Of a stretch of 64,000 bases of DNA, positions 57,545-64,000 are shown piece after piece. How positions within the stretch are numbered: position 1 is the first letter of the stretch; every line of letters starts with the position of its first letter. Origin of the DNA: an uncultured Chloroflexia bacterium. GTDB taxonomy: Bacteria; Chloroflexota; Limnocylindria; Limnocylindrales; CSP1-4. The notes beneath the pieces are model-generated. The model did not search any database. It was not told where the DNA came from and saw only the letters and a program-made list of their open reading frames with translations. Made by a program: the position numbers and the translations under genes. The stretch is from positions 1,472,001 to 1,536,000 of the forward strand of contig CAWHDR010000001.1 in assembly GCA_963828165.1 (NCBI GenBank), read 5' to 3'.

Positions 57545-57934
57545 TCAGCGACGGCGTAGTCGATCGACGATCGAGCGGCGCCGGCGGACCTTGGGGGCAG
57601 GCTCGCGAGCCCCGGCCGGCGGAGCCGATGGAGCGGCCGGCGGGACAGGCTCGACGGGTGGCTCGGGAACGGTCTCGCCACGCGTGCGCATGACCTCGTC
57701 GAGGCGCGTGACGAGCCGCTGGGCCGCCTCGTTCTCCGGGTCGATGGTGAGGGCCTTGCGTGCGAGCAGGTAGGCACCGGCGTCATCCGCGTGCTCGAGC
57801 GCGACGCGCGCGAGACCGACCACGGCGATCGAATTTGCTGGATCGCTGGCGGCCACCTGCCGGTAAAGCCGTTCGGCCTCGTCGACGCGCCCGAACGACA
57901 GGGCCCGCTCGGCTTCGAGGAGCAGCTCGATCAT
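57545..57934 (-). CDS. Small TPR-repeat protein
   Basis: AERLYRQVAASDPAN, KALTIDPEN; Pro-rich basic tail. Confidence 0.8.
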   Translation of the reverse strand: MIELLLEAERALSFGRVDEAERLYRQVAASDPANSIAVVGLARVALEHADDAGAYLLARKALTIDPENEAAQRLVTRLDEVMRTRGETVPEPPVEPVPPAAPSAPPAGAREPAPKVRRRRSIVDRLRRR

Positions 57935-59301
57935 CCCGCCGGCTCCGAGCTGAGTCGCCGGCGTGCGAGGTCGAGCAGGCCGTCACGCGTGTTGACCGAC
58001 GGGTCGGCGATGACCCGCTCCAGGAGCCAATCCAGGAGGCGCCCAAGGCCGGGCCCCGGCGCGATGCCCAGCTCCGCCATCAGGTCCGAGCCGTCGATCG
58101 CGAGTCCGCTGAGGTCGAGTGCCACGCCCGCGGCGAGCTCCTTGGCGACGCGCGCGCGGAGCTCGTCCAGCCCACCGGCGTCAGGCGCCCGCCCGGATCC
58201 GATGTGGTCCGCCTCACGCAGCAGGAAGAGGTCCTCCAGCTCGTCGCGACCGATCTTCACGATGAACCGGCGGACGGCGGCATCCGACCAGCTCGGCTGA
58301 TACCCGAACATGTGATGGCGGATGAGGCGCACGATCCTCTGGCGCTCCGCCACGGGCCAGCGCCAGTCGTCGAGGAGCTTGTCGGCCAGCTCCGCGCCGA
58401 CCGACTCGTGGCCCAGGAACCGGCCGTCGGCCATCGTCAAGGGCTTGCCGATGTCGTGAAGCAGGGCCGCGAACCGGATCCACGTCGGCTCCCTCGCCGC
58501 CCCGTCGACCGCGCGGAGCGTGTGATCCCAGAGGTCCTCGCCGGGGACCTTGTTCTGCGGGATGCCGGGCTGCGCGGCGAGATCCGGGGAGATGGCGAAG
58601 AGCAGCCCGGTCTCGGCCATCAGCCGAAGGCCGACCGACGGACGCTGCGCGGACAGCAGCCGCCGCATCTCGATCGCGATCCGCTCGCCGGACAGGCGGC
58701 GCACGTTGTCGGCCTTCGCGCGGATCGCGGCCAGCGTCGCCGGCTCAACGTCGAATTCGAGCGTGGCCGCCAGCCGGACGGCGCGGACCATGCGCAACGC
58801 GTCCTCGTGGAAGCGCTGCGCCGGGTCGCCGACGGTCCGCAGGGTGCGAGCCGCAAGGTCGGCCTGGCCGCCGTGCGGATCGACGAGTCGTGGCGGTTCG
58901 CCGGGCTCGGCGCCCCAGGCCATCGCGTTGACCGTGAAATCGCGGCGGGCCAGATCCAGATGGATGGACTCGCTGAACTCGACCCGATGCGGCCGACGGA
59001 AGTCGGCGTAGTCGTGGTCGGAGCGGAACGTCGTGATCGCGACCTCACCGACCTCCGGAGAATCGGTCCGGACCGCGACCGTTCCGAACTTGTTCTCATA
59101 AACGGCGTTGGGAAACAGCTCGAGCGTGCGTTCTGGTAGCGCGGCGGTGGCGAGGTCCCAGTCCTCCGGCGGCCGGCCCAGGAGGCTGTCGCGGACGGAC
59201 CCTCCCACCACGTACGCTGCGTGCCCACCGGCCCAGAGCGTGCGCAGCAGGTCGGAGACGCCCTCCGGGATCGCGCGTTGGAGGTCGATCTTGGTCGACA
59301 C
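57931..59301 (-). CDS. cca: CCA tRNA nucleotidyltransferase with HD domain; start uncertain
   Basis: VGGSVRD, DWD, DLARRDFTVNAMA, EDALR, LLHDIGK. Confidence 0.92.
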   Translation of the reverse strand: MSTKIDLQRAIPEGVSDLLRTLWAGGHAAYVVGGSVRDSLLGRPPEDWDLATAALPERTLELFPNAVYENKFGTVAVRTDSPEVGEVAITTFRSDHDYADFRRPHRVEFSESIHLDLARRDFTVNAMAWGAEPGEPPRLVDPHGGQADLAARTLRTVGDPAQRFHEDALRMVRAVRLAATLEFDVEPATLAAIRAKADNVRRLSGERIAIEMRRLLSAQRPSVGLRLMAETGLLFAISPDLAAQPGIPQNKVPGEDLWDHTLRAVDGAAREPTWIRFAALLHDIGKPLTMADGRFLGHESVGAELADKLLDDWRWPVAERQRIVRLIRHHMFGYQPSWSDAAVRRFIVKIGRDELEDLFLLREADHIGSGRAPDAGGLDELRARVAKELAAGVALDLSGLAIDGSDLMAELGIAPGPGLGRLLDWLLERVIADPSVNTRDGLLDLARRRLSSEPAG

Positions 59302-59318
59302 GTCGCCCGCTCGGGGCG

Positions 59319-59834
59319 TCAGTTCCGCCCGAGGAACAGGTACGTCCGCCACGCGTCGTTACGCTCGTCCACGAGATACGGCGTGAACAGCGAGTAGATG
59401 TCGCTGCGCGGCTCGTGCGGCTCTCGCTTGAGTCGAAGCCGCGCCTCGTCCAGCGTCTTGCCGCCCTTCCGGTGGTTGCAGGGCTTGCAGGCGGTGACGA
59501 GGTTCTCCCAGCTGTGGGCTCCGCCACGGTGGCGCGGCATCACATGGTCGAGCGTGAGGTCGTGGGTCTGGCGGCCGCAGTACTGGCACGTGTGCCGGTC
59601 GCGCGCGAAGACCTCGCGACGGCTGAGCTTCACCCGCGGCCGCGGCCGGCGGATGAAGTGCTGGAGGCGGATCACGGAGGGCGCGCGGAACTCCGTCCGC
59701 GGCGTCCGAATCATCTGGTGGTCGTACTCGATCACCTCGGCCTTCTCACCGAACAGCAGTCGGAAGGCCCTTGGCAGATTGCAGACGTTGAGCGGCTCGT
59801 AGTTCTGGTTCAGAACGAGAACGACGCCGTCCAT
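59319..59834 (-). CDS. HNH endonuclease (McrA-like, Zn-binding)
   Basis: VLVLNQNYEPL, PSVIRL, RDRHTCQYC, TLDHVMP, SWENLVTACKPCN. Confidence 0.92.
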   Translation of the reverse strand: MDGVVLVLNQNYEPLNVCNLPRAFRLLFGEKAEVIEYDHQMIRTPRTEFRAPSVIRLQHFIRRPRPRVKLSRREVFARDRHTCQYCGRQTHDLTLDHVMPRHRGGAHSWENLVTACKPCNHRKGGKTLDEARLRLKREPHEPRSDIYSLFTPYLVDERNDAWRTYLFLGRN

Positions 59835-60598: not shown

Positions 60599-61543
60599 TT
60601 ACGTGCTCCGCCCAGTCGCGGCACCTGTCGCAGGGTCCCAGCCGCCGGCTTGGCCGACCTTGCTGCTGAGCGGCTTGCCGAGTCTGTCCGCGATGAACCG
60701 GGCCGCCTCGAGGACGCCGTCCAGGGAGACGCCATGCGTCCATCCCGAGGCGTCGAGGAAGTACACGAGGTCCTCGGTCGCGAGGTTGCCGGCGGCACCC
60801 GGGGCATACGGGCAGCCGCCGGTCCCGCCCGTGGCGCTGTCGAACGTCCGAACCCCTGCGGCCAGACCCGCAGCGACGTTGGCCAGCGCCGTGCCTCGCG
60901 TGTCGTGGAAGTGGAAGGCCTGCCGGCTGACACGGATGCCCGCCCCCTGGGCAAGATTCACGAGCTCGCCGACCTGGTTCGGCACCCCGACACCGATCGT
61001 GTCCCCGAAGCAGATCTCATCGACGCCGAGGTCGAGCAGCCTGCGCGCGACGTCTACCGCGGTCTGCGGCTTCACGCGCCCCGTGTACGGGCATCCGAAC
61101 GCGGTCGACACGTATGCGCGCCGCCACCATCCGAGCTCGCGGGCGCGGGCCAGGACCGGCGCGAAGGCCGCGAGGGACTCGTCGACCGTCATCCCGATGT
61201 TCTTCTCCGTGAACGCATCGGTCGCGGCGGTGAAGACGGCGATCGCCTCGACCCCGGCGGCCTCCGCGCGGGCCAGACCGCGCTCGTTCGGCACCAGGAC
61301 CGGGTAGCGAACGCTTTCGCTGCGCGGCAGAGCGGCCAGGAGCTCGTCCGCGTCCGCGAGCTGCGGGATGGCCTTCGGGGAGACGAACGACGTGACCTCG
61401 ATATCGCGCAAGCCGGCGTCGACCAGGAGCTCGATGAAGCGGAGCTTGTCTGCGGTCGAGATCGGCGTGGGCTCGTTCTGCAGGCCGTCGCGTGGCCCGA
61501 CCTCGTAGATCCGGACGCGTCGGTCGTCGGACCGCTCCGTCAT
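60599..61543 (-). CDS. hmgL: Hydroxymethylglutaryl-CoA lyase
   Basis: EVGPRDGLQNE, SFVSPK, GDTIG, HFHDT, GGCPYAPGAAGN. Confidence 0.95.
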   Translation of the reverse strand: MTERSDDRRVRIYEVGPRDGLQNEPTPISTADKLRFIELLVDAGLRDIEVTSFVSPKAIPQLADADELLAALPRSESVRYPVLVPNERGLARAEAAGVEAIAVFTAATDAFTEKNIGMTVDESLAAFAPVLARARELGWWRRAYVSTAFGCPYTGRVKPQTAVDVARRLLDLGVDEICFGDTIGVGVPNQVGELVNLAQGAGIRVSRQAFHFHDTRGTALANVAAGLAAGVRTFDSATGGTGGCPYAPGAAGNLATEDLVYFLDASGWTHGVSLDGVLEAARFIADRLGKPLSSKVGQAGGWDPATGAATGRST

Positions 61544-61567
61544 CGCGCGAAGGTCATCGACGAACGA

Positions 61568-61771
61568 TCAGCCGAGCGGCGGGTCCATCGCCCGCTCGAT
61601 GCGGGCGATCTCGACCTCGATCTTGCCGAGCAGGTCGATCGCCTCGACGTGCTCCGGGCTGCCGTGCTTCGCCGTGTTCCGCCGTTTGCGCGTGTCGCGG
61701 TGGAGGTCGAGCAGCGACTCGCGCGTCCTCGGCAGCTTCGTCTCGGTCGTCGGTGCCTTTGCTTTCTCCAT
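61568..61771 (-). CDS. Small helical hypothetical protein (67 aa)
   Basis: GC3-biased ORF between carboxylase and hmgL. Confidence 0.65.
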   Translation of the reverse strand: MEKAKAPTTETKLPRTRESLLDLHRDTRKRRNTAKHGSPEHVEAIDLLGKIEVEIARIERAMDPPLG

Positions 61772-61819
61772 GGGCGCAGCGTACCGCGTTCGCGATGCTC
61801 TGGACCCGGCGACATCGCC

Positions 61820-63844
61820 TCAGTCGGGGTCGTCGATGACGCCGAGGGTCTGCCCGCGCGTCACCTGCTCCCCTTCGGCCACGGCCAATTCGATCAAGCG
61901 TCCGGCACGAGGCGACTCGACGGCATGCTCCATCTTCATGGCTTCCAGCGTCACGACCGGGTCATCGGCGTTGACCGCAGAGCCGACCGCCACGTGGATC
62001 TTGAGGACCTGACCGGGCATCGGGGCGACGAGCTCCGTGCGGCCACCGGCGTGGGCCGCGGCCGCGCTCGCGGCGCGATCCACGTCCGGGGGCGGGGCCA
62101 CGCGGAACGGGGTGCTGCGACCGGCGAAGTCCAGGTGGACGGTGTCGCCGGCACGCACGATCTCGGCCCTCGTCCGGGCGTTTCCCGGCGAGAGTCGAAC
62201 GCTCCTTGTCTCGTCGTCGCTGACGAGGCGGATGGCCGGGGCCGCGTTGAGTCGGAAGCCGTCCCGTACGGGTGCCGCGGTCGTGCCTGGTTGGCGGTCG
62301 TCGTCGGCCAGGAGCGCGCGCGCCGCAGCGGACCAGGCCGCGTCCGGGATCCGTGCCCGCTGCGTCCAGTCGTCCGGCGGCCAGATGCGGTCCAGCGTGT
62401 CGGTTCGGGCTTGGCCGTCGCGGACCACCGGCTCGCGGACGAGCCAGCGCAGGAACCGCAAGTTCGTCGTCAGCCCAAGGACCACGGTCCCGTCGAGCGC
62501 CCGCGTCAGGCGCTCCAAGGCATCCGCCCGGTCGTTGCCGCGCGCGATGATCTTGGCGAGCATCGGATCGAACCGGCCACCGACCTGGTCGCCCTCGTCG
62601 ACGCCGGCATCGACCCGGACGCCGTCCCCGGACGGCCATCGAAGGCGCTCGATGCGCCCGGTCGCGGGCAAGAAGCCGCGCTCGGCATCCTCCGCGTAGA
62701 GGCGGACCTCGATCGCGTGGCCTTCGAAGTGGACGTCGTCCTGCGAGATCCCCAGCGGTTCGCCCGCAGCGATGCGGAGCTGGTCGGCGACCAGGTCACG
62801 GCCGGTCGTGAGCTCGGTGACCGGGTGCTCGACCTGGAGTCTCGTGTTCATCTCGAGGAACGTGAACGTGCCCCGGTCGTCCAGCAGGAATTCGCAGGTC
62901 CCGGCGCTCTCGTAGCCGACCGCGCCCGCCAGCGCCAGTGCCGCTTCGCCCATCGCACGGCGTCGCGCGGCATCGACCGCGGGGGAGGGCGCCTCCTCGA
63001 GCACCTTCTGGTGGCGACGCTGGATCGAGCAGTCCCGTTCGCCAAGATGGACGCCATTGCCCTGGTTGTCGAAGAGGACCTGGATCTCGACGTGCCGGGC
63101 TCCTTCGAGGAGCCGCTCGAGGATGAGCCGGTCATCGTGGAAGGCGGCCCGCGCCTCGCGTCGGGCGGCGGCTAGCTCTGTCGGGAGGCGGTCGGCGGAT
63201 CGAACGGTGCGCATGCCCTTGCCGCCGCCACCGGCCGCTGGTTTGACCAGCACGGGGTAGCCGATGCGTTGGGCCGCCTTGATGAGCGCGGCGTCCGACT
63301 GGTCGTCATCGTCGTAACCGGCAGGCACGGTGATGCCGAGGCTCGCCGCGAGCTTGCGACTGGCCGCCTTGTCGCCCATGGCCCGGATGGCTTCCGGTGG
63401 TGGGCCGACCCAGCGGATTCCGGCCCCGATCACGCGCTCCGCGAAGTCGGCATTCTCGGCGAGGAAGCCGAAGCCAGGGTGGAGGGCGTCGGCGTGCACG
63501 TGTCGAGCGGCGGCGACCACGGCGTCGGCGTCCAGGAGGTCGAGCGCGTCCGGGCCGTCCGTGGGTGGGGCCACGGCGCGGATGCCGAGTCGATCGCACG
63601 TCCGGGTGATCCGGGTCGCGATCTCGCCTCGATTGGCAATGAACAGGACGCCGATCGGACCGTTGTGCGCGGTGATCGTGGGATTGCCGGGTGTCTCAAA
63701 CGCGCCAATCGCGTCAGACGCGACACGCCAACGACCGCCCACGCGCCTGGCCGGCATCGCACCACTGGCAATCCAACGTTGAACCGACCGTGTCGACGTG
63801 CCAAGGCGCCGTGCGACCTCACTCGGGCTCAGTTCGTCGCTCAT
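61820..63844 (-). CDS. Acyl-CoA carboxylase alpha subunit (biotin carboxylase + BCCP, MccA/LiuD-like) with N-terminal excisionase-type HTH
   Basis: HTH LSPSEVARRLGTSTRSVQRWIASGAMPARRVGGRWRV; IANRGEIA, HPGFGFLAEN, GGGGKGMR, ERDCSIQRRHQK, EMNTRLQVEH, EAMKM. Confidence 0.92.
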   Translation of the reverse strand: MSDELSPSEVARRLGTSTRSVQRWIASGAMPARRVGGRWRVASDAIGAFETPGNPTITAHNGPIGVLFIANRGEIATRITRTCDRLGIRAVAPPTDGPDALDLLDADAVVAAARHVHADALHPGFGFLAENADFAERVIGAGIRWVGPPPEAIRAMGDKAASRKLAASLGITVPAGYDDDDQSDAALIKAAQRIGYPVLVKPAAGGGGKGMRTVRSADRLPTELAAARREARAAFHDDRLILERLLEGARHVEIQVLFDNQGNGVHLGERDCSIQRRHQKVLEEAPSPAVDAARRRAMGEAALALAGAVGYESAGTCEFLLDDRGTFTFLEMNTRLQVEHPVTELTTGRDLVADQLRIAAGEPLGISQDDVHFEGHAIEVRLYAEDAERGFLPATGRIERLRWPSGDGVRVDAGVDEGDQVGGRFDPMLAKIIARGNDRADALERLTRALDGTVVLGLTTNLRFLRWLVREPVVRDGQARTDTLDRIWPPDDWTQRARIPDAAWSAAARALLADDDRQPGTTAAPVRDGFRLNAAPAIRLVSDDETRSVRLSPGNARTRAEIVRAGDTVHLDFAGRSTPFRVAPPPDVDRAASAAAAHAGGRTELVAPMPGQVLKIHVAVGSAVNADDPVVTLEAMKMEHAVESPRAGRLIELAVAEGEQVTRGQTLGVIDDPD

Positions 63845-64000
63845 CGTGTCGCGATTGTCGCAGTCGCGCCGCGCGACGGCAAGAAGTGCCGCACCAGATG
63901 ACCGCACAGTGCGATGCTACGCATCTGACGTGGGCTCGACTCGGGGTTTCGATAGGGGGAGGGACGGATCTTGGCTGCTGATTCCAAACGCCGGATCGTG

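Follow-up and report, generated by a model that had tools for sequence, protein, structure and literature searches.

A Xis/BldC-type winged helix fused to a predicted 3-methylcrotonyl-CoA carboxylase alpha subunit in Chloroflexota, with a conserved candidate operator at the fusion gene's own promoter

A carboxylase subunit with an N-terminal winged helix

On the minus strand of the window (the whole 64,000-nucleotide stretch of DNA analyzed here), positions 61820-63844 encode a 674-aa product (P0001) in which a winged helix of the HTH_17 family is followed by a disordered linker and a predicted alpha subunit of 3-methylcrotonyl-CoA carboxylase (MCC); the enclosing open reading frame (ORF) spans 61820-63907 on the same strand. 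The gene and its downstream neighbors comprise the following features.

60599..61543, minus strand: HMG-CoA lyase gene, downstream of the fusion gene (NCBIfam PRK05692, 362 bits, cut-off 246)
61568..61771, minus strand: small ORF of 67 aa between the alpha subunit and HMG-CoA lyase genes, found in 8 of the 8 loci examined
61835..62035, minus strand: biotinyl (BCCP) domain, residues 604-670 (Pfam Biotin_lipoyl)
61934-61936, minus strand: biotinyl-lysine K637 in the AMKM motif, with A635, M636, K637 and M638 invariant
62036..62389, minus strand: BT-like region between BC and BCCP, residues 486-603 (3u9s alignment; AF2 strands at 537-582)
62390..63658, minus strand: biotin carboxylase (BC) domain, residues 63-485 (Pfam; paralogue comparison)
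63530-63571, minus strand: 18-aa deletion in the N-domain of BC, at about residues 92-105 (comparison with the BC paralogues of the genome)
63659..63697, minus strand: flexible linker, residues 50-62 (pLDDT below 50 at 50-58; length and sequence differ among loci)
63698..63844, minus strand: winged helix-turn-helix (HTH) domain, residues 1-49 (Pfam HTH_17 over 5-46; AF2 pLDDT 80-92; Foldseek)
63842..63844, minus strand: start codon ATG; the N-terminus M(S/A/P)(D/E)EL(S/T)P is kept in all fusion loci

The match to HTH_17 (PF12728) reaches 40.7 bits over residues 5-46, above the Pfam gathering cut-off of 27. In the enzyme part, Biotin_carb_N is matched in two stretches, which indicates a gap in the N-domain, and is followed by CPSase_L_D2 (residues 158-365), Biotin_carb_C (379-485) and Biotin_lipoyl (604-670). 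The preliminary description had proposed an excisionase-type HTH in frame with BC-BCCP and no methionine between them, and this is borne out: the Pfam domains lie in one uninterrupted ORF, and the junction (...AFETPGNPTITAHNGPIGVLFIANRGE...) contains no stop codon and no ATG, GTG or TTG before the start of BC. The disordered linker varies from 13 to about 45 residues depending on the locus. The gene call in the public genome (P0008, 645 aa) begins at Met30 and thereby bisects the HTH; given that residues 1-29 are conserved at 60-87% identity, this call is too short.

Compared with the two other BC paralogues of the genome, the fusion lacks 18 residues of the BC N-domain: 29 residues separate '..AV' from 'HPG(Y/F)GF' in the fusion versus 47 in the paralogues, the absent piece being the '..LADEAxxIGPA..' stretch, so that the earlier observation of about 18 residues missing around the ADEAV loop holds. 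A coupling of this deletion to the HTH was ruled out, because two HTH-less orthologues (L021 and L022) share it. The glycine loop, ERDCSIQRRHQK, E318, E331/N333/R335, R381 and AMKM are invariant in the enzyme part of the fusion and, judged from the sequence, the catalytic and biotinylation residues are intact.

The closest solved chains to the alpha subunit are those of MCC alpha (3u9s, 453 bits; human MCCA, 443 bits). The alignment with 3u9s covers residues 66-672, and no solved alpha chain matches residues 1-60. The beta subunit, encoded 5 kb upstream, scores 740 bits against Pseudomonas aeruginosa MCC beta (3u9r), versus 442 bits for the beta subunit of geranyl-CoA carboxylase and about 260 for that of PCC. 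With ATP-grasp catalytic residues, a BT-like region, an AMKM-bearing BCCP, an MCC-type beta partner and leucine-catabolic neighbors, the gene is assigned to the alpha subunit (BC-BT-BCCP) of MCC, an enzyme of leucine/isovalerate catabolism, the substrate specificity being predicted.

The gene order CT, MOSC, ECH, alpha, HMGL recurs over seven related loci, HMGL following the fusion in all seven and ECH lying upstream in six. The alpha and beta genes form separate transcription units 5 kb apart, with beta and the hydratase located upstream of alpha in other units. The small ORF carries its own -10-like element, GGTACGCT, and has no match among Pfam and NCBIfam families; the Atlas yields only unnamed Chloroflexota clusters for it. 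No integrase or mobile element was found at the fusion locus.

The fusion is conserved in two families of one class

Of 121 genomes sampled from the same Chloroflexota class, 57 carry the fusion: 17 of 35 in one family (f1), in addition to the genome of the window, and 39 of 40 in another (f3). None of the 361 sampled genomes from other families of the phylum has it. Thus, an architecture search of the kind proposed in the preliminary description finds that the fusion is not unique to this assembly. PF12728 and the BC domains occur together in 118 of the best 120 matches to residues 1-110, and the metagenomic homologues number more than 1000. A search for an HTH-less orthologue in f1 genera without the fusion produced, in four genomes, paralogue-level matches only (44-50% identity), which suggests that the alpha gene is absent there, as opposed to having lost its HTH. 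When residues 1-62 were used in a representative search, the 893 matches were mostly fusion fragments and proteins with 2-8 tandem HTH_17 domains, and they did not reveal the origin of the domain; nor does the genome of the window encode a close HTH paralogue, the next tblastn match having 37% identity (E = 4e-4).

The possibility that the HTH and BC are actually separate genes, joined through an artefact of assembly or gene calling, is practically negligible. The public gene call beginning at Met30 would fit it, and contigs from four public DNA runs cover pieces of the stretch, none spanning the HTH-BC junction, so that they are silent on a split. Against an artefact, the reading frame is unbroken across dozens of independent assemblies, and there is no start codon ahead of BC. 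Split fusions occur in only four loci (L017, L018, L019 and G381), in each case by a frameshift; to judge from the record titles, those in the first three are probably long-read errors. The conservation of the fusion refutes the artefact and, on this comparative evidence, the fusion is real and under selection.

The fused domain resembles Xis and BldC

In the AF2 model, the domain consists of helices at residues 7-14 and 18-27, strands at 32-35 and 38-42 and a third helix at 43-50, followed by disorder. The top Foldseek matches are Xis, BldC, RacA and RdfS, with TM scores of 0.77 for Pukovnik Xis and 0.74-0.77 for BldC-DNA; SoxR, CueR-type proteins and CarH are also among the matches. In a profile search against solved structures, Pukovnik Xis ranked first (E = 7.8e-9), with RacA at 4.7e-7 and BldC at 2e-4. 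Across 32 sequences, P7, A11, R19, Q22, R23, W24, R34, G36 and R38 are invariant, a set that includes the recognition-helix and wing residues. BldC is described as placing each protomer on one 9-bp direct repeat, head to tail, with K26 and R30 contacting bases and W31 contacting the phosphate backbone (PMC5859096); the invariant R19, R23 and W24 of the fusion align with these three residues.

The modeled fold, a winged HTH with a beta wing and a third helix, free of a coiled coil or effector domain, identifies the HTH as a Xis/BldC-type winged helix of the monomeric class. Typical members of this class are free-standing proteins of about 55-75 residues, whereas the present domain is followed by about 610 residues of BC-BCCP enzyme, so that it is predicted to work like the BldC/Xis class and yet is an untypical member. 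The features of classical MerR regulators are absent: no coiled coil follows the winged HTH, the putative site covers -10 to +1 of a promoter with a 17-nt spacer (see below), and the Pfam MerR match, at 17.7 bits, falls under the cut-off of 28.2.

A conserved repeat block coincides with the core promoter

Immediately upstream of the start codon, a short block of sequence overlaps recognizable promoter elements.

63847..63862, minus strand: O1, 16-nt block TGCGACAATCGCGACA, almost unchanged in 37 of the 38 unique fusion loci
63854..63859, minus strand: -10 hexamer GACAAT, in a layout shared with 46 candidate leaderless promoters of the genome
63861-63862, minus strand: extended -10 TG, preceding GACAAT
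63877..63882, minus strand: -35-like TTGCCG, 17 nt upstream of GACAAT, its TTG weakly conserved

O1 consists of two 9-bp direct-repeat units, (n)WMTGCGAC and AATCGCGAC, each with GCGAC at its end. The preliminary description had listed four repeat copies upstream of the gene, which read on the plus strand as TGTCGC at 63847-63852 and 63856-63861 (a 9-bp period), GTCGC at 63863-63867 and GCGAC at 63873-63877. Each of these copies is in place, but only the pair with the 9-bp spacing is conserved, as part of the O1 block kept in 37 of the 38 fusion loci; GTCGC at 63863 and the inverted GCGAC at 63873 are not conserved and were ruled out as parts of the element. Compared with the 12-mer, O1 has no mismatch in 23 of the 38 unique fusion loci, one in 13 and two in one, although the loci share descent, so that these counts exaggerate the independent support. 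Positions 0-15 are near-invariant, whereas the information content over positions -29 to -1 is about 0 bits, except for the weak TTG, which at -20 to -18 is conserved in 14-19 of 37 loci per position. In f1, the second repeat unit varies between GCGAC, GCGCC and GCGTC. O1 also contains a short inverted repeat, GCGA-N3-TCGC, and hence the direct-repeat reading is not the sole one.

Within the genome of the window, O1 is the best match to the position weight matrix (PWM), at 27.3 bits compared with 21.1 for the runner-up. Across the 121 genomes, the exact 14-mer has 60 matches, 40 of them at most 25 nt before a fusion start, against a background of 14 matches in 64 genomes without the fusion; the pattern GCGACRATCGCGNCA proved too loose, its G variant being common in the coding sequence of GC-rich genomes, and the A variant was used for matching. 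O1 is missing at the start of three HTH-less orthologues (L021, L022 and L049), which lie directly behind the hydratase gene. There is one exception in the other direction, a fusion locus that has the HTH without O1 (L138, in genome G196), and the exact 14-mer is absent from at least four further f3 genomes. By these comparisons, O1 is conserved, essentially unique per genome, placed on the promoter and co-occurring with the HTH.

The 46 candidate leaderless promoters of the genome have the form TGnTAnnnT, followed by 5-9 nt and then ATG or GTG. In f3, the start codon directly follows O1; in f1, it lies 9-12 nt past the -10 element, which is somewhat far for a strictly leaderless start. The extended -10 element, the discriminator and the probable transcription start all fall at least partly within O1, and the promoter of the fusion gene is predicted to be leaderless or near-leaderless. 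A simple consensus scan for sigma-70 promoters and terminators over 61400-64000 returned no sites; by hand count, TTGCCG and GACAAT together match 8 of 12 consensus positions, with the threshold of the scan set at 9. Among RNA runs, none is listed as covering 63300-64000.

Because O1 coincides with TG, the -10 element and +1, some of its conservation is attributable to RNA polymerase. We consider it unlikely that this is the full account, with O1 representing merely an unusually constrained core promoter and the HTH binding DNA non-specifically or tethering the enzyme to the nucleoid as RacA does. Such a reading gains from the exact coincidence of O1 with the promoter elements, from RacA, an architectural chromosome anchor, being the second-best profile match, and from the retention of the HTH without O1 in G196. 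However, the generic leaderless promoters of the same genome (TGcTAnnnT with variable discriminators) and the small-ORF promoter, where only GGTACGCT is conserved and the distance to the start codon varies, conserve the -10 element only. By contrast, non-consensus positions and a 6-nt discriminator of O1 are invariant across the two families. O1 is, moreover, absent from the HTH-less orthologues, and this reading does not predict the second copy that is kept within the gene by synonymous codons (see below). That O1 is the general promoter consensus of the genome was ruled out, since generic and small-ORF promoters differ from it and it is the single top match.

Another conceivable role of the HTH is activation, through MerR-like remodeling of the promoter or recruitment of polymerase to the weak GACAAT. 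The domain does belong to the MerR-like superfamily (hence the matches to SoxR, CueR-type proteins and CarH), and the -10 hexamer deviates from the TAnnnT usual in this genome. Classical MerR promoters have long spacers, whereas here the -35-like and -10 elements are 17 nt apart and the site extends from -10 to +1, a position in which a bound protein normally blocks polymerase. Furthermore, classical MerR activators are described as coiled-coil dimers bound in the -35/-10 spacer (PMC5859096), and there is no coiled coil in the fusion, so that we regard activation as very unlikely.

It also appears quite unlikely that an unlinked regulator binds O1 while the HTH serves protein assembly, for example, through head-to-tail contacts that build a higher-order or filamentous carboxylase. 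MCC filaments are reported in Leishmania and Legionella (PMC12776079; bioRxiv 10.1101/2022.08.19.504621), and Xis/BldC domains are described as oligomerizing head to tail (PMC5859096). Yet the invariant HTH residues are those that contact DNA in BldC, and BldC oligomerizes on DNA, not free in solution; O1 and the HTH co-occur gene by gene, and no conserved candidate regulator gene adjoins the locus, the upstream neighbors being variable.

A second copy of the block inside the coding region

The gene contains a further match to the O1 motif within the region encoding the HTH.

63701..63716, plus strand: O2 (CGCGCCAATCGCGTCA), an inverted copy of O1 with a lower score, in the part of the gene that encodes the wing and helix 3

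O2 scores 16.9 bits, the fourth-best match in the genome of the window, and lies 146 bp from O1, center to center, with a range of 137-146 bp over the loci. Of 37 loci, 17 have a copy of at least 13 bits at this position, compared with two background matches in 428 kb. The two conserved GCGAC units 9 bp apart that characterize O1 recur at O2 in f3, where the direct repeat is kept and the inverted repeat is broken. The two families reach the motif via different amino acids, using codons such as ATT, TTT, CGT and TCT, which on our reading of the sequences are rare in the genome. O2 outscores synonymous recodings of the same stretch in 25 of 34 loci, compared with 4, 2, 0, 1 and 1 of 34 for the controls, in a test that ignores codon-context bias. 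These comparisons indicate that O2 is maintained by synonymous codon choice, and it may be a second operator.

Self-repression by the alpha subunit

A conserved 9-bp direct repeat on the core promoter of the very gene that encodes the HTH is best read as self-repression: the alpha subunit probably represses its own promoter. We infer both the binding of the HTH to O1 and the repressive effect. The tethered helix of the alpha subunit would bind the two head-to-tail 9-bp units at O1, and the bound protein would exclude RNA polymerase or stop read-through from the upstream hydratase gene, so that alpha would limit transcription of the unit consisting of alpha, the small ORF and HMG-CoA lyase. The regulated operon would accordingly be narrower than the whole pathway, with beta and the hydratase outside the unit. 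O2, about 137-146 bp downstream, may serve as a second operator, and the multimeric enzyme could engage O1 and O2 at once, resulting in looping or a roadblock. In trigger enzymes such as BirA and PutA, a single polypeptide combines catalysis with sequence-specific DNA binding that controls transcription. The fusion is a candidate for this group: its catalytic and DNA-binding domains are apparently intact, and its own promoter carries a gene-specific candidate operator.

The preliminary description had gone further, with a carboxylase that represses its operon according to its assembly, biotinylation or acyl-CoA state. The conserved repeat on its own promoter and the intact HTH and enzyme favor the self-repression part of this proposal; sensing of state, which is nested within it, we treat as speculative and rather unlikely. 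Binding would then be set by free versus holoenzyme alpha, biotinylation, ATP or methylcrotonyl-CoA, and the presence of substrate, or a shortage of alpha relative to beta, would lift the repression of the operon. Between the HTH and BC, the disordered linker of 13 to about 45 residues could allow the enzyme body to occlude the HTH or to present several copies of it; alpha and beta are encoded in separate units 5 kb apart, where a balancing loop would be useful; and two candidate operators 137-146 bp apart would suit a multivalent binder. BirA and PutA are precedents for effector coupling in enzyme-repressors. However, the sequence gives no hint of an effector switch, AF2 gives no confident HTH-BC contact, and plain constitutive negative autoregulation accounts for all the data.

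In its most specific form, the holoenzyme itself would be the repressor, several tethered helices holding O1 and the candidate O2 and looping the roughly 140 bp between them, with occupancy set by alpha-beta assembly, biotinylation or methylcrotonyl-CoA. We consider this form doubtful; if true, a large metabolic complex would read leucine catabolic flux at its own promoter.

Relationship to known systems

Our literature search found no described example of this fusion, in agreement with the preliminary description, which knew of none. Few enzymes also act as repressors of the pathway they belong to, and these are valued as the simplest connection between metabolism and the control of genes; to our knowledge, none has been described among biotin-dependent carboxylases. 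PutA and RbkR, the archaeal riboflavin kinase-regulator, similarly combine an enzyme with a DNA-binding domain that controls genes of its own pathway, but their DNA-binding folds and enzymes are different, and neither is part of a large hetero-oligomeric holoenzyme. Like the present system, RbkR was discovered by comparative genomics (PMC5397151).

With respect to the DNA-binding domain, Pukovnik Xis (gp37 of a mycobacteriophage, 4j2n) is the best match in both sequence and fold (38% identity, TM 0.77) but is a stand-alone phage excisionase, an architectural recombination factor. BldC of Streptomyces (6ama, 6amk) is likewise small, with a MerR-like/Xis-like winged helix and no coiled coil, although its sequence identity to the fused HTH is only 28-30%. 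The 9-bp spacing of the direct repeats is the same, and the unit AATCGCGAC conforms to the scheme AATTxxxx(C) of BldC (PMC5859096). The fused domain is carried by a 610-residue enzyme and apparently has a single target promoter with GC-rich repeats (GCGAC), whereas BldC, at 68 residues, is free-standing and regulates many AT-rich targets pleiotropically. So far, the Xis/BldC-type helix is known as a free architectural or pleiotropic protein; if self-repression is true, it would serve here as a single-target regulator on a large enzyme.

Among enzymes, bacterial MCC alpha (LiuD), for example, P. aeruginosa 3u9s, has the same BC-BT-BCCP layout and an MCC-type beta partner, but the solved MCC enzymes retain the 18 N-domain residues deleted in the fusion. 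The proteobacterial liu genes are under a separate MerR-type regulator, LiuR. BirA acts as a dimer on a palindromic operator with biotinoyl-AMP as corepressor, whereas the fusion combines a Xis/BldC-type helix with direct repeats in its candidate operator. BirA, the textbook enzyme-repressor, resembles the fusion in belonging to biotin metabolism and in having a winged helix at its N-terminus, through which it represses an operon of its own pathway (PMC4016012; PMC3199775). It is a ligase, not a carboxylase, and its HTH belongs to a different family.

The subunit balance of biotin-dependent carboxylases is an old and partly disputed question. The subunits of Escherichia coli acetyl-CoA carboxylase are proposed to limit their own expression, AccB acting on accBC and the carboxyltransferase on accA and accD mRNA; the carboxyltransferase-mRNA model has been challenged, and AccB is described in the same source as having no DNA-binding motif (PMC11602165). 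The fusion, by contrast, has a recognizable DNA-binding domain and a defined candidate operator. The system thus offers a defined DNA-binding domain together with a candidate operator of 16 nt and a second, probable one, and the orthologues that lack both domain and site provide a natural control. It also adds a promoter model, with an extended -10 element and a predicted leaderless start, for an uncultured Chloroflexota class that is abundant in soil and freshwater.

Fusion of a winged helix to a carboxylase subunit

The preliminary description held that an excisionase-type helix-turn-helix (HTH) is joined in frame to biotin carboxylase (BC) and biotinyl (BCCP) domains, with no methionine between them near the BC start, and translation of the open reading frame together with Pfam searches bears this out. 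In the reading frame of the fusion protein, P0001, neither a stop codon nor a possible start codon separates the HTH from the beginning of BC.

Features of the fusion gene and its product
63907 to 61820, minus strand: open reading frame
63844, minus strand: conserved ATG start codon, giving the 674-aa protein P0001
Residues 5-46: HTH_17 (Pfam, 40.7 bits against a gathering score of 27)
Biotin_carb_N (Pfam), matched in two pieces
Residues 158-365: ATP-grasp domain (Pfam)
Residues 379-485: Biotin_carb_C (Pfam)
Residues 604-670: biotinyl domain (Pfam)

The genome's own gene call (P0008/P0009, 645 aa) begins at Met30 (window 63757), in the middle of the HTH, so that the automatic annotation hides the fusion. 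This call is too short, given that residues 1-29 retain 60-87% identity in relatives.

By similarity, the fusion gene encodes the alpha subunit of 3-methylcrotonyl-CoA carboxylase (MCC). Among proteins of known structure, MCC alpha chains match P0001 best (Pseudomonas aeruginosa 3u9s, 453 bits over residues 66-672; human MCCA, 443 bits), residues 1-60 having no match among solved chains. The product of a carboxyltransferase gene located 5 kb upstream matches MCC beta (3u9r) at 740 bits, compared with 442 for geranyl-CoA carboxylase beta and ~260 for PCC beta; an HMG-CoA lyase gene lies directly downstream of alpha (NCBIfam PRK05692, 362 bits, cut-off 246), and upstream of alpha there is an enoyl-CoA hydratase gene of the methylglutaconyl/carboxygeranoyl type. 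An alignment of 52 homologues shows no variation in the glycine-rich loop, ERDCSIQRRHQK, E318, E331/N333/R335, R381 or the AMKM biotinylation motif, so that the enzyme appears catalytically intact. The genome encodes two other BC paralogues (45-47% identity), both without the HTH. Relative to these paralogues, 18 residues of the BC N-domain (the '..LADEAxxIGPA..' stretch) are missing, as had been noticed initially. Among the three HTH-less orthologues compared, L021 and L022 share this deletion and L049 carries an insertion there, so that a connection between the deletion and the HTH is rejected and the deletion is a lineage trait.

In the AF2 model of the full-length protein (mean pLDDT 88.4), residues 1-49 form a confident winged helix, followed by a linker with pLDDT <50 (residues 50-58) and then by BC; the linker is 13 to ~45 residues long, depending on the locus, and shows no conservation. 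Foldseek matched the isolated domain model (pLDDT 81.6) to Pukovnik Xis (TM 0.77, 38% identity) and BldC-DNA complexes (TM 0.74-0.77), with RacA, RdfS, small terminase subunits and MerR-type proteins as lower matches, and a profile of 32 HTH sequences yielded Xis (E = 7.8e-9), RacA (4.7e-7) and BldC (2e-4). No variation is seen at P7, A11, R19, Q22, R23, W24, R34, G36 or R38. HMMER aligns R19, R23 and W24 with K26, R30 and W31 of BldC, of which, as described for BldC, the first two make major-groove base contacts and W31 touches the backbone (PMC5859096). No close paralogue of the HTH was found elsewhere in the window's genome. Proteins of 250-860 aa, such as P0123, P0126 and P0156, contain 4-8 tandem HTH_17 copies that are 30-42% identical to the fusion HTH and amount to arrays of Xis/BldC-like helices within one chain.

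Distribution of the fusion

A search with residues 1-110 retrieved 1251 proteins at E of 1e-3 or better, labelled Candidatus Limnocylindrales, Chloroflexota or 'uncultured Chloroflexia'. PF12728 and the BC domains occur together in 118 of the best 120 of the 1251 matches, the remaining two being the truncated calls of this genome. Among 401 sampled Chloroflexota genomes, matches across the HTH-BC junction were found in 9 of 24 genomes of family f1, to which the window's genome belongs, and 16 of 16 of family f3 from the same class, and the 361 genomes outside these families had none. With denser sampling of the class, 57 of 121 genomes carry the fusion (17 of 35 in f1 plus the window's genome, and 39 of 40 in f3), and families f2 (0/5), f4 (0/39) and f83 (0/1) lack it. 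The architecture is therefore not peculiar to this assembly but widespread, yet confined to one Chloroflexota class. These tallies take in genomes flagged as unpublished, none of which decides a claim: G442 and G451 are two of the 39 fusion-bearing f3 genomes (55 of 119 without both), G344 belongs to the 401-genome sample, G461 contributes one background motif match, and G427, G467, G446, G461 and G451 also enter one looser motif count.

Four fusion-less f1 genomes yield paralogue-level matches only (44-50% identity), and in these, the alpha gene itself, rather than just its HTH, seems to be absent. The fusion is interrupted by frameshifts in the HTH or linker at L017, L018, L019 and G381:C1:1796517-1796839; for the first three, sequencing error is more likely than a pseudogene because the assemblies look like long-read MAGs. 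The public contigs of four DNA runs do not span the HTH-BC boundary, and among the RNA runs consulted, none covers the locus.

A conserved block on the promoter of the fusion gene

All four repeat copies that the preliminary description located upstream of the gene are in place, but conservation is limited to the two spaced 9 bp apart, the third and the inverted copy, which lie further upstream, being specific to the window's genome. The comparison rests on 38 non-redundant fusion loci, made up of the window's locus and two sets of 14 and 24, with one duplicate removed from the second. In 37 of these, the conserved pair lies within a block, (T/C)GCGAC(A/G)ATCGCG(A/C/T)CA (O1; 63847-63862 in the window), with no mismatch to its 12-mer core at 23 loci, one at 13 and two at one. 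Block positions 0-15 are near-invariant, and positions -29 to -1 carry ~0 bits except for a weak TTG at -20 to -18. The exception, L138 of G196 (G196:C9:46880-49780), has ...GCACGGATAG-ATG before the start and an otherwise typical HTH, and counts against autorepression. The block also precedes the frameshifted L017, L018 and L019, with a one-mismatch variant at G381 (L128).

Scored with a position weight matrix, the window's own site reaches 27.3 bits and the next best in the 3.3-Mb genome 21.1. The 14-mer GCGACAATCGCG(A/C)C occurs 60 times in 121 genomes, 40 times at <=25 nt upstream of a fusion start (8 in f1, 32 in f3); the remaining 20 matches are dispersed: 14 fall in the 64 genomes that lack a fusion match and 6 at other positions in fusion-bearing genomes. 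Exact copies are present at G261:C33:22199-22212 and G418:C2:137202-137215, in genomes for which no fusion match was reported and where a contig end may truncate the fusion gene or the search may have overlooked it.

At the first start codon of long ORFs, the window's genome (G000) shows the pattern TG(C/G)TAnnnT, 5-9 nt, ATG or GTG in 46 cases, with variable discriminators (for example at C1:97881, 676533 and 2539365). These are candidate leaderless promoters, and they suggest widespread use of extended -10 leaderless expression in this class. The fusion gene has a matching layout (TG-C-GACAAT, CGCGAC, start). In f3, ATG or GTG directly follows the block, its first base occupying the seventh position beyond the -10 element, and the f3 fusion mRNA is therefore predicted to be strictly leaderless; in f1, 2-6 extra bases separate block and start codon. 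From this layout and the start position, the block is predicted to span the extended -10, the discriminator and +1. Part of its conservation must then be owed to RNA polymerase, which counts against autorepression, as does a consensus promoter scan that called no promoter at the fusion locus. We nevertheless read the block as more than a promoter: it is unique in the genome, the neighbouring promoter keeps only a -10-like element, and the HTH-less orthologues L021, L022 and L049, directly behind the hydratase gene, have no block at the start.

A second site inside the gene

The matrix scan of the 37 loci detected a weaker, inverted copy (O2) at a fixed place within the HTH coding region, 136-147 bp downstream of O1 (centre to centre).

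63701-63716, plus strand: O2, CGCGCCAATCGCGTCA, 16.9 bits, fourth-best match in the whole genome, coding for the wing and helix 3

An O2 of at least 13 bits is present at 17 of 37 loci, against a background of 2 matches of that strength in the 428 kb scanned. The encoded amino acids differ, VASDA(I/L)xAF in f1 versus VSRSSL in f3, and both approach the motif via codons such as ATT, TTT, CGT and TCT, which, in our reading of the sequences, are rare in these GC-rich genes. When synonymous codons were resampled from each gene's own usage, <=5% of recodings reached the O2 score at 27 of 35 loci (25 of 34 in a repeat run), compared with 4, 2, 0, 1 and 1 of 34 for five controls, namely this region on its forward strand and four regions elsewhere in the gene, the loci being related by descent and hence not independent trials. 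The codon signal is specific to that place and strand. The O1-O2 spacings fall into classes of ~137 and ~146 bp, which differ by one repeat unit and both lie near whole helical turns by our arithmetic (10.5 bp per turn).

One reading of the block is as a pair of 9-bp units, (n)WMTGCGAC and AATCGCGAC. BldC protomers are described as each occupying one 9-bp direct repeat, AATTxxxx(C), head to tail, with the wing in the AT-rich minor groove and R30 contacting a YpG step (PMC5859096); the second unit of the block fits this scheme. O1 may instead be symmetric, as the short inverted repeat GCGA-N3-TCGC inside it would suggest, but the f3 O2 site, AGCGACGAACGCGACA, keeps two GCGAC units 9 bp apart and breaks the inverted repeat, so that the direct-repeat reading is favoured.

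Candidate autoregulation by the carboxylase

A conserved, genome-unique site on a gene's own promoter combined with an invariant DNA-binding domain in its product is a classical signature of autoregulation, and because the predicted site covers -10 to +1, repression is indicated. The sequence data point to candidate autoregulation of the alpha gene by its HTH, with repression as the direction. Alpha would bind O1 through its tethered helices and shut off its own promoter, limiting expression of alpha, a small ORF behind it and HMG-CoA lyase, and this feedback would keep alpha at a fixed level. In f3, ~13 nt separate the hydratase stop codon from the downstream block, and there alpha may also prevent read-through from the hydratase gene. 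MCC is multimeric, and because the enzyme would carry several helices, O2 may add to repression, either by DNA looping or by acting as a roadblock. The beta and hydratase genes are in separate units, with variable genes inserted between in f1. The initial proposal that the carboxylase represses its own operon according to enzyme state is thus partly supported: the gene-specific candidate operator and the invariant HTH stand, but the regulated unit would consist of alpha, the small ORF and HMG-CoA lyase, with beta and hydratase outside it, and any response of binding to assembly, biotinylation or substrate would be speculative. What emerges is a putative enzyme-repressor with a defined candidate operator, readily testable. 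We infer, as a plausible origin, that a small self-regulated Xis-like gene and its promoter were captured between hydratase and alpha, with subsequent loss of the stop codon.

No published description of a DNA-binding domain on a biotin-dependent carboxylase was found in the literature; queries on carboxylase/HTH fusions, HTH_17 carboxylases and Limnocylindria gave no characterised example, as initially surmised. In the relevant passages of a review of carboxylase evolution, a DNA-binding domain is mentioned only for BirA (PMC3199775), and a preprint on Legionella MCC uses helix-turn-helix for a structural element within the beta subunit. Self-control of Escherichia coli ACC by AccB and by the carboxyltransferase has been proposed, in an account where AccB is without a DNA-binding motif and the carboxyltransferase mRNA model is challenged (PMC11602165).

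Neighbouring genes

61568-61771, minus strand: small ORF of 60-67 aa, between alpha and HMG-CoA lyase at 8 of 8 loci

The small ORF has the conserved sequence ...TRxELLALHRETRRRRNAAxHGSxEHxAAIDLLGRIEVEVARIERAMDPPLV and no match in Pfam, NCBIfam or the named Atlas families; its product could be an accessory subunit or partner of the carboxylase. Its promoter conserves only GGTACGCT, its own -10-like element, at a distance to the start codon that varies between loci, and some loci have a leader with GGAGGA ahead of the start.

Behind HMG-CoA lyase (window 57931-59834, minus strand) lie genes for an HNH endonuclease (171 aa) and a CCA-adding/poly(A) polymerase-family protein; this pair recurs in most related loci examined (L006-L016), a stable gene order that has no obvious connection with leucine catabolism. 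A MOSC-domain gene is found near beta and hydratase at the window's own locus (L004 5086-5895, minus strand) and at 4 of 7 related loci (L006, L012, L013 and L015).
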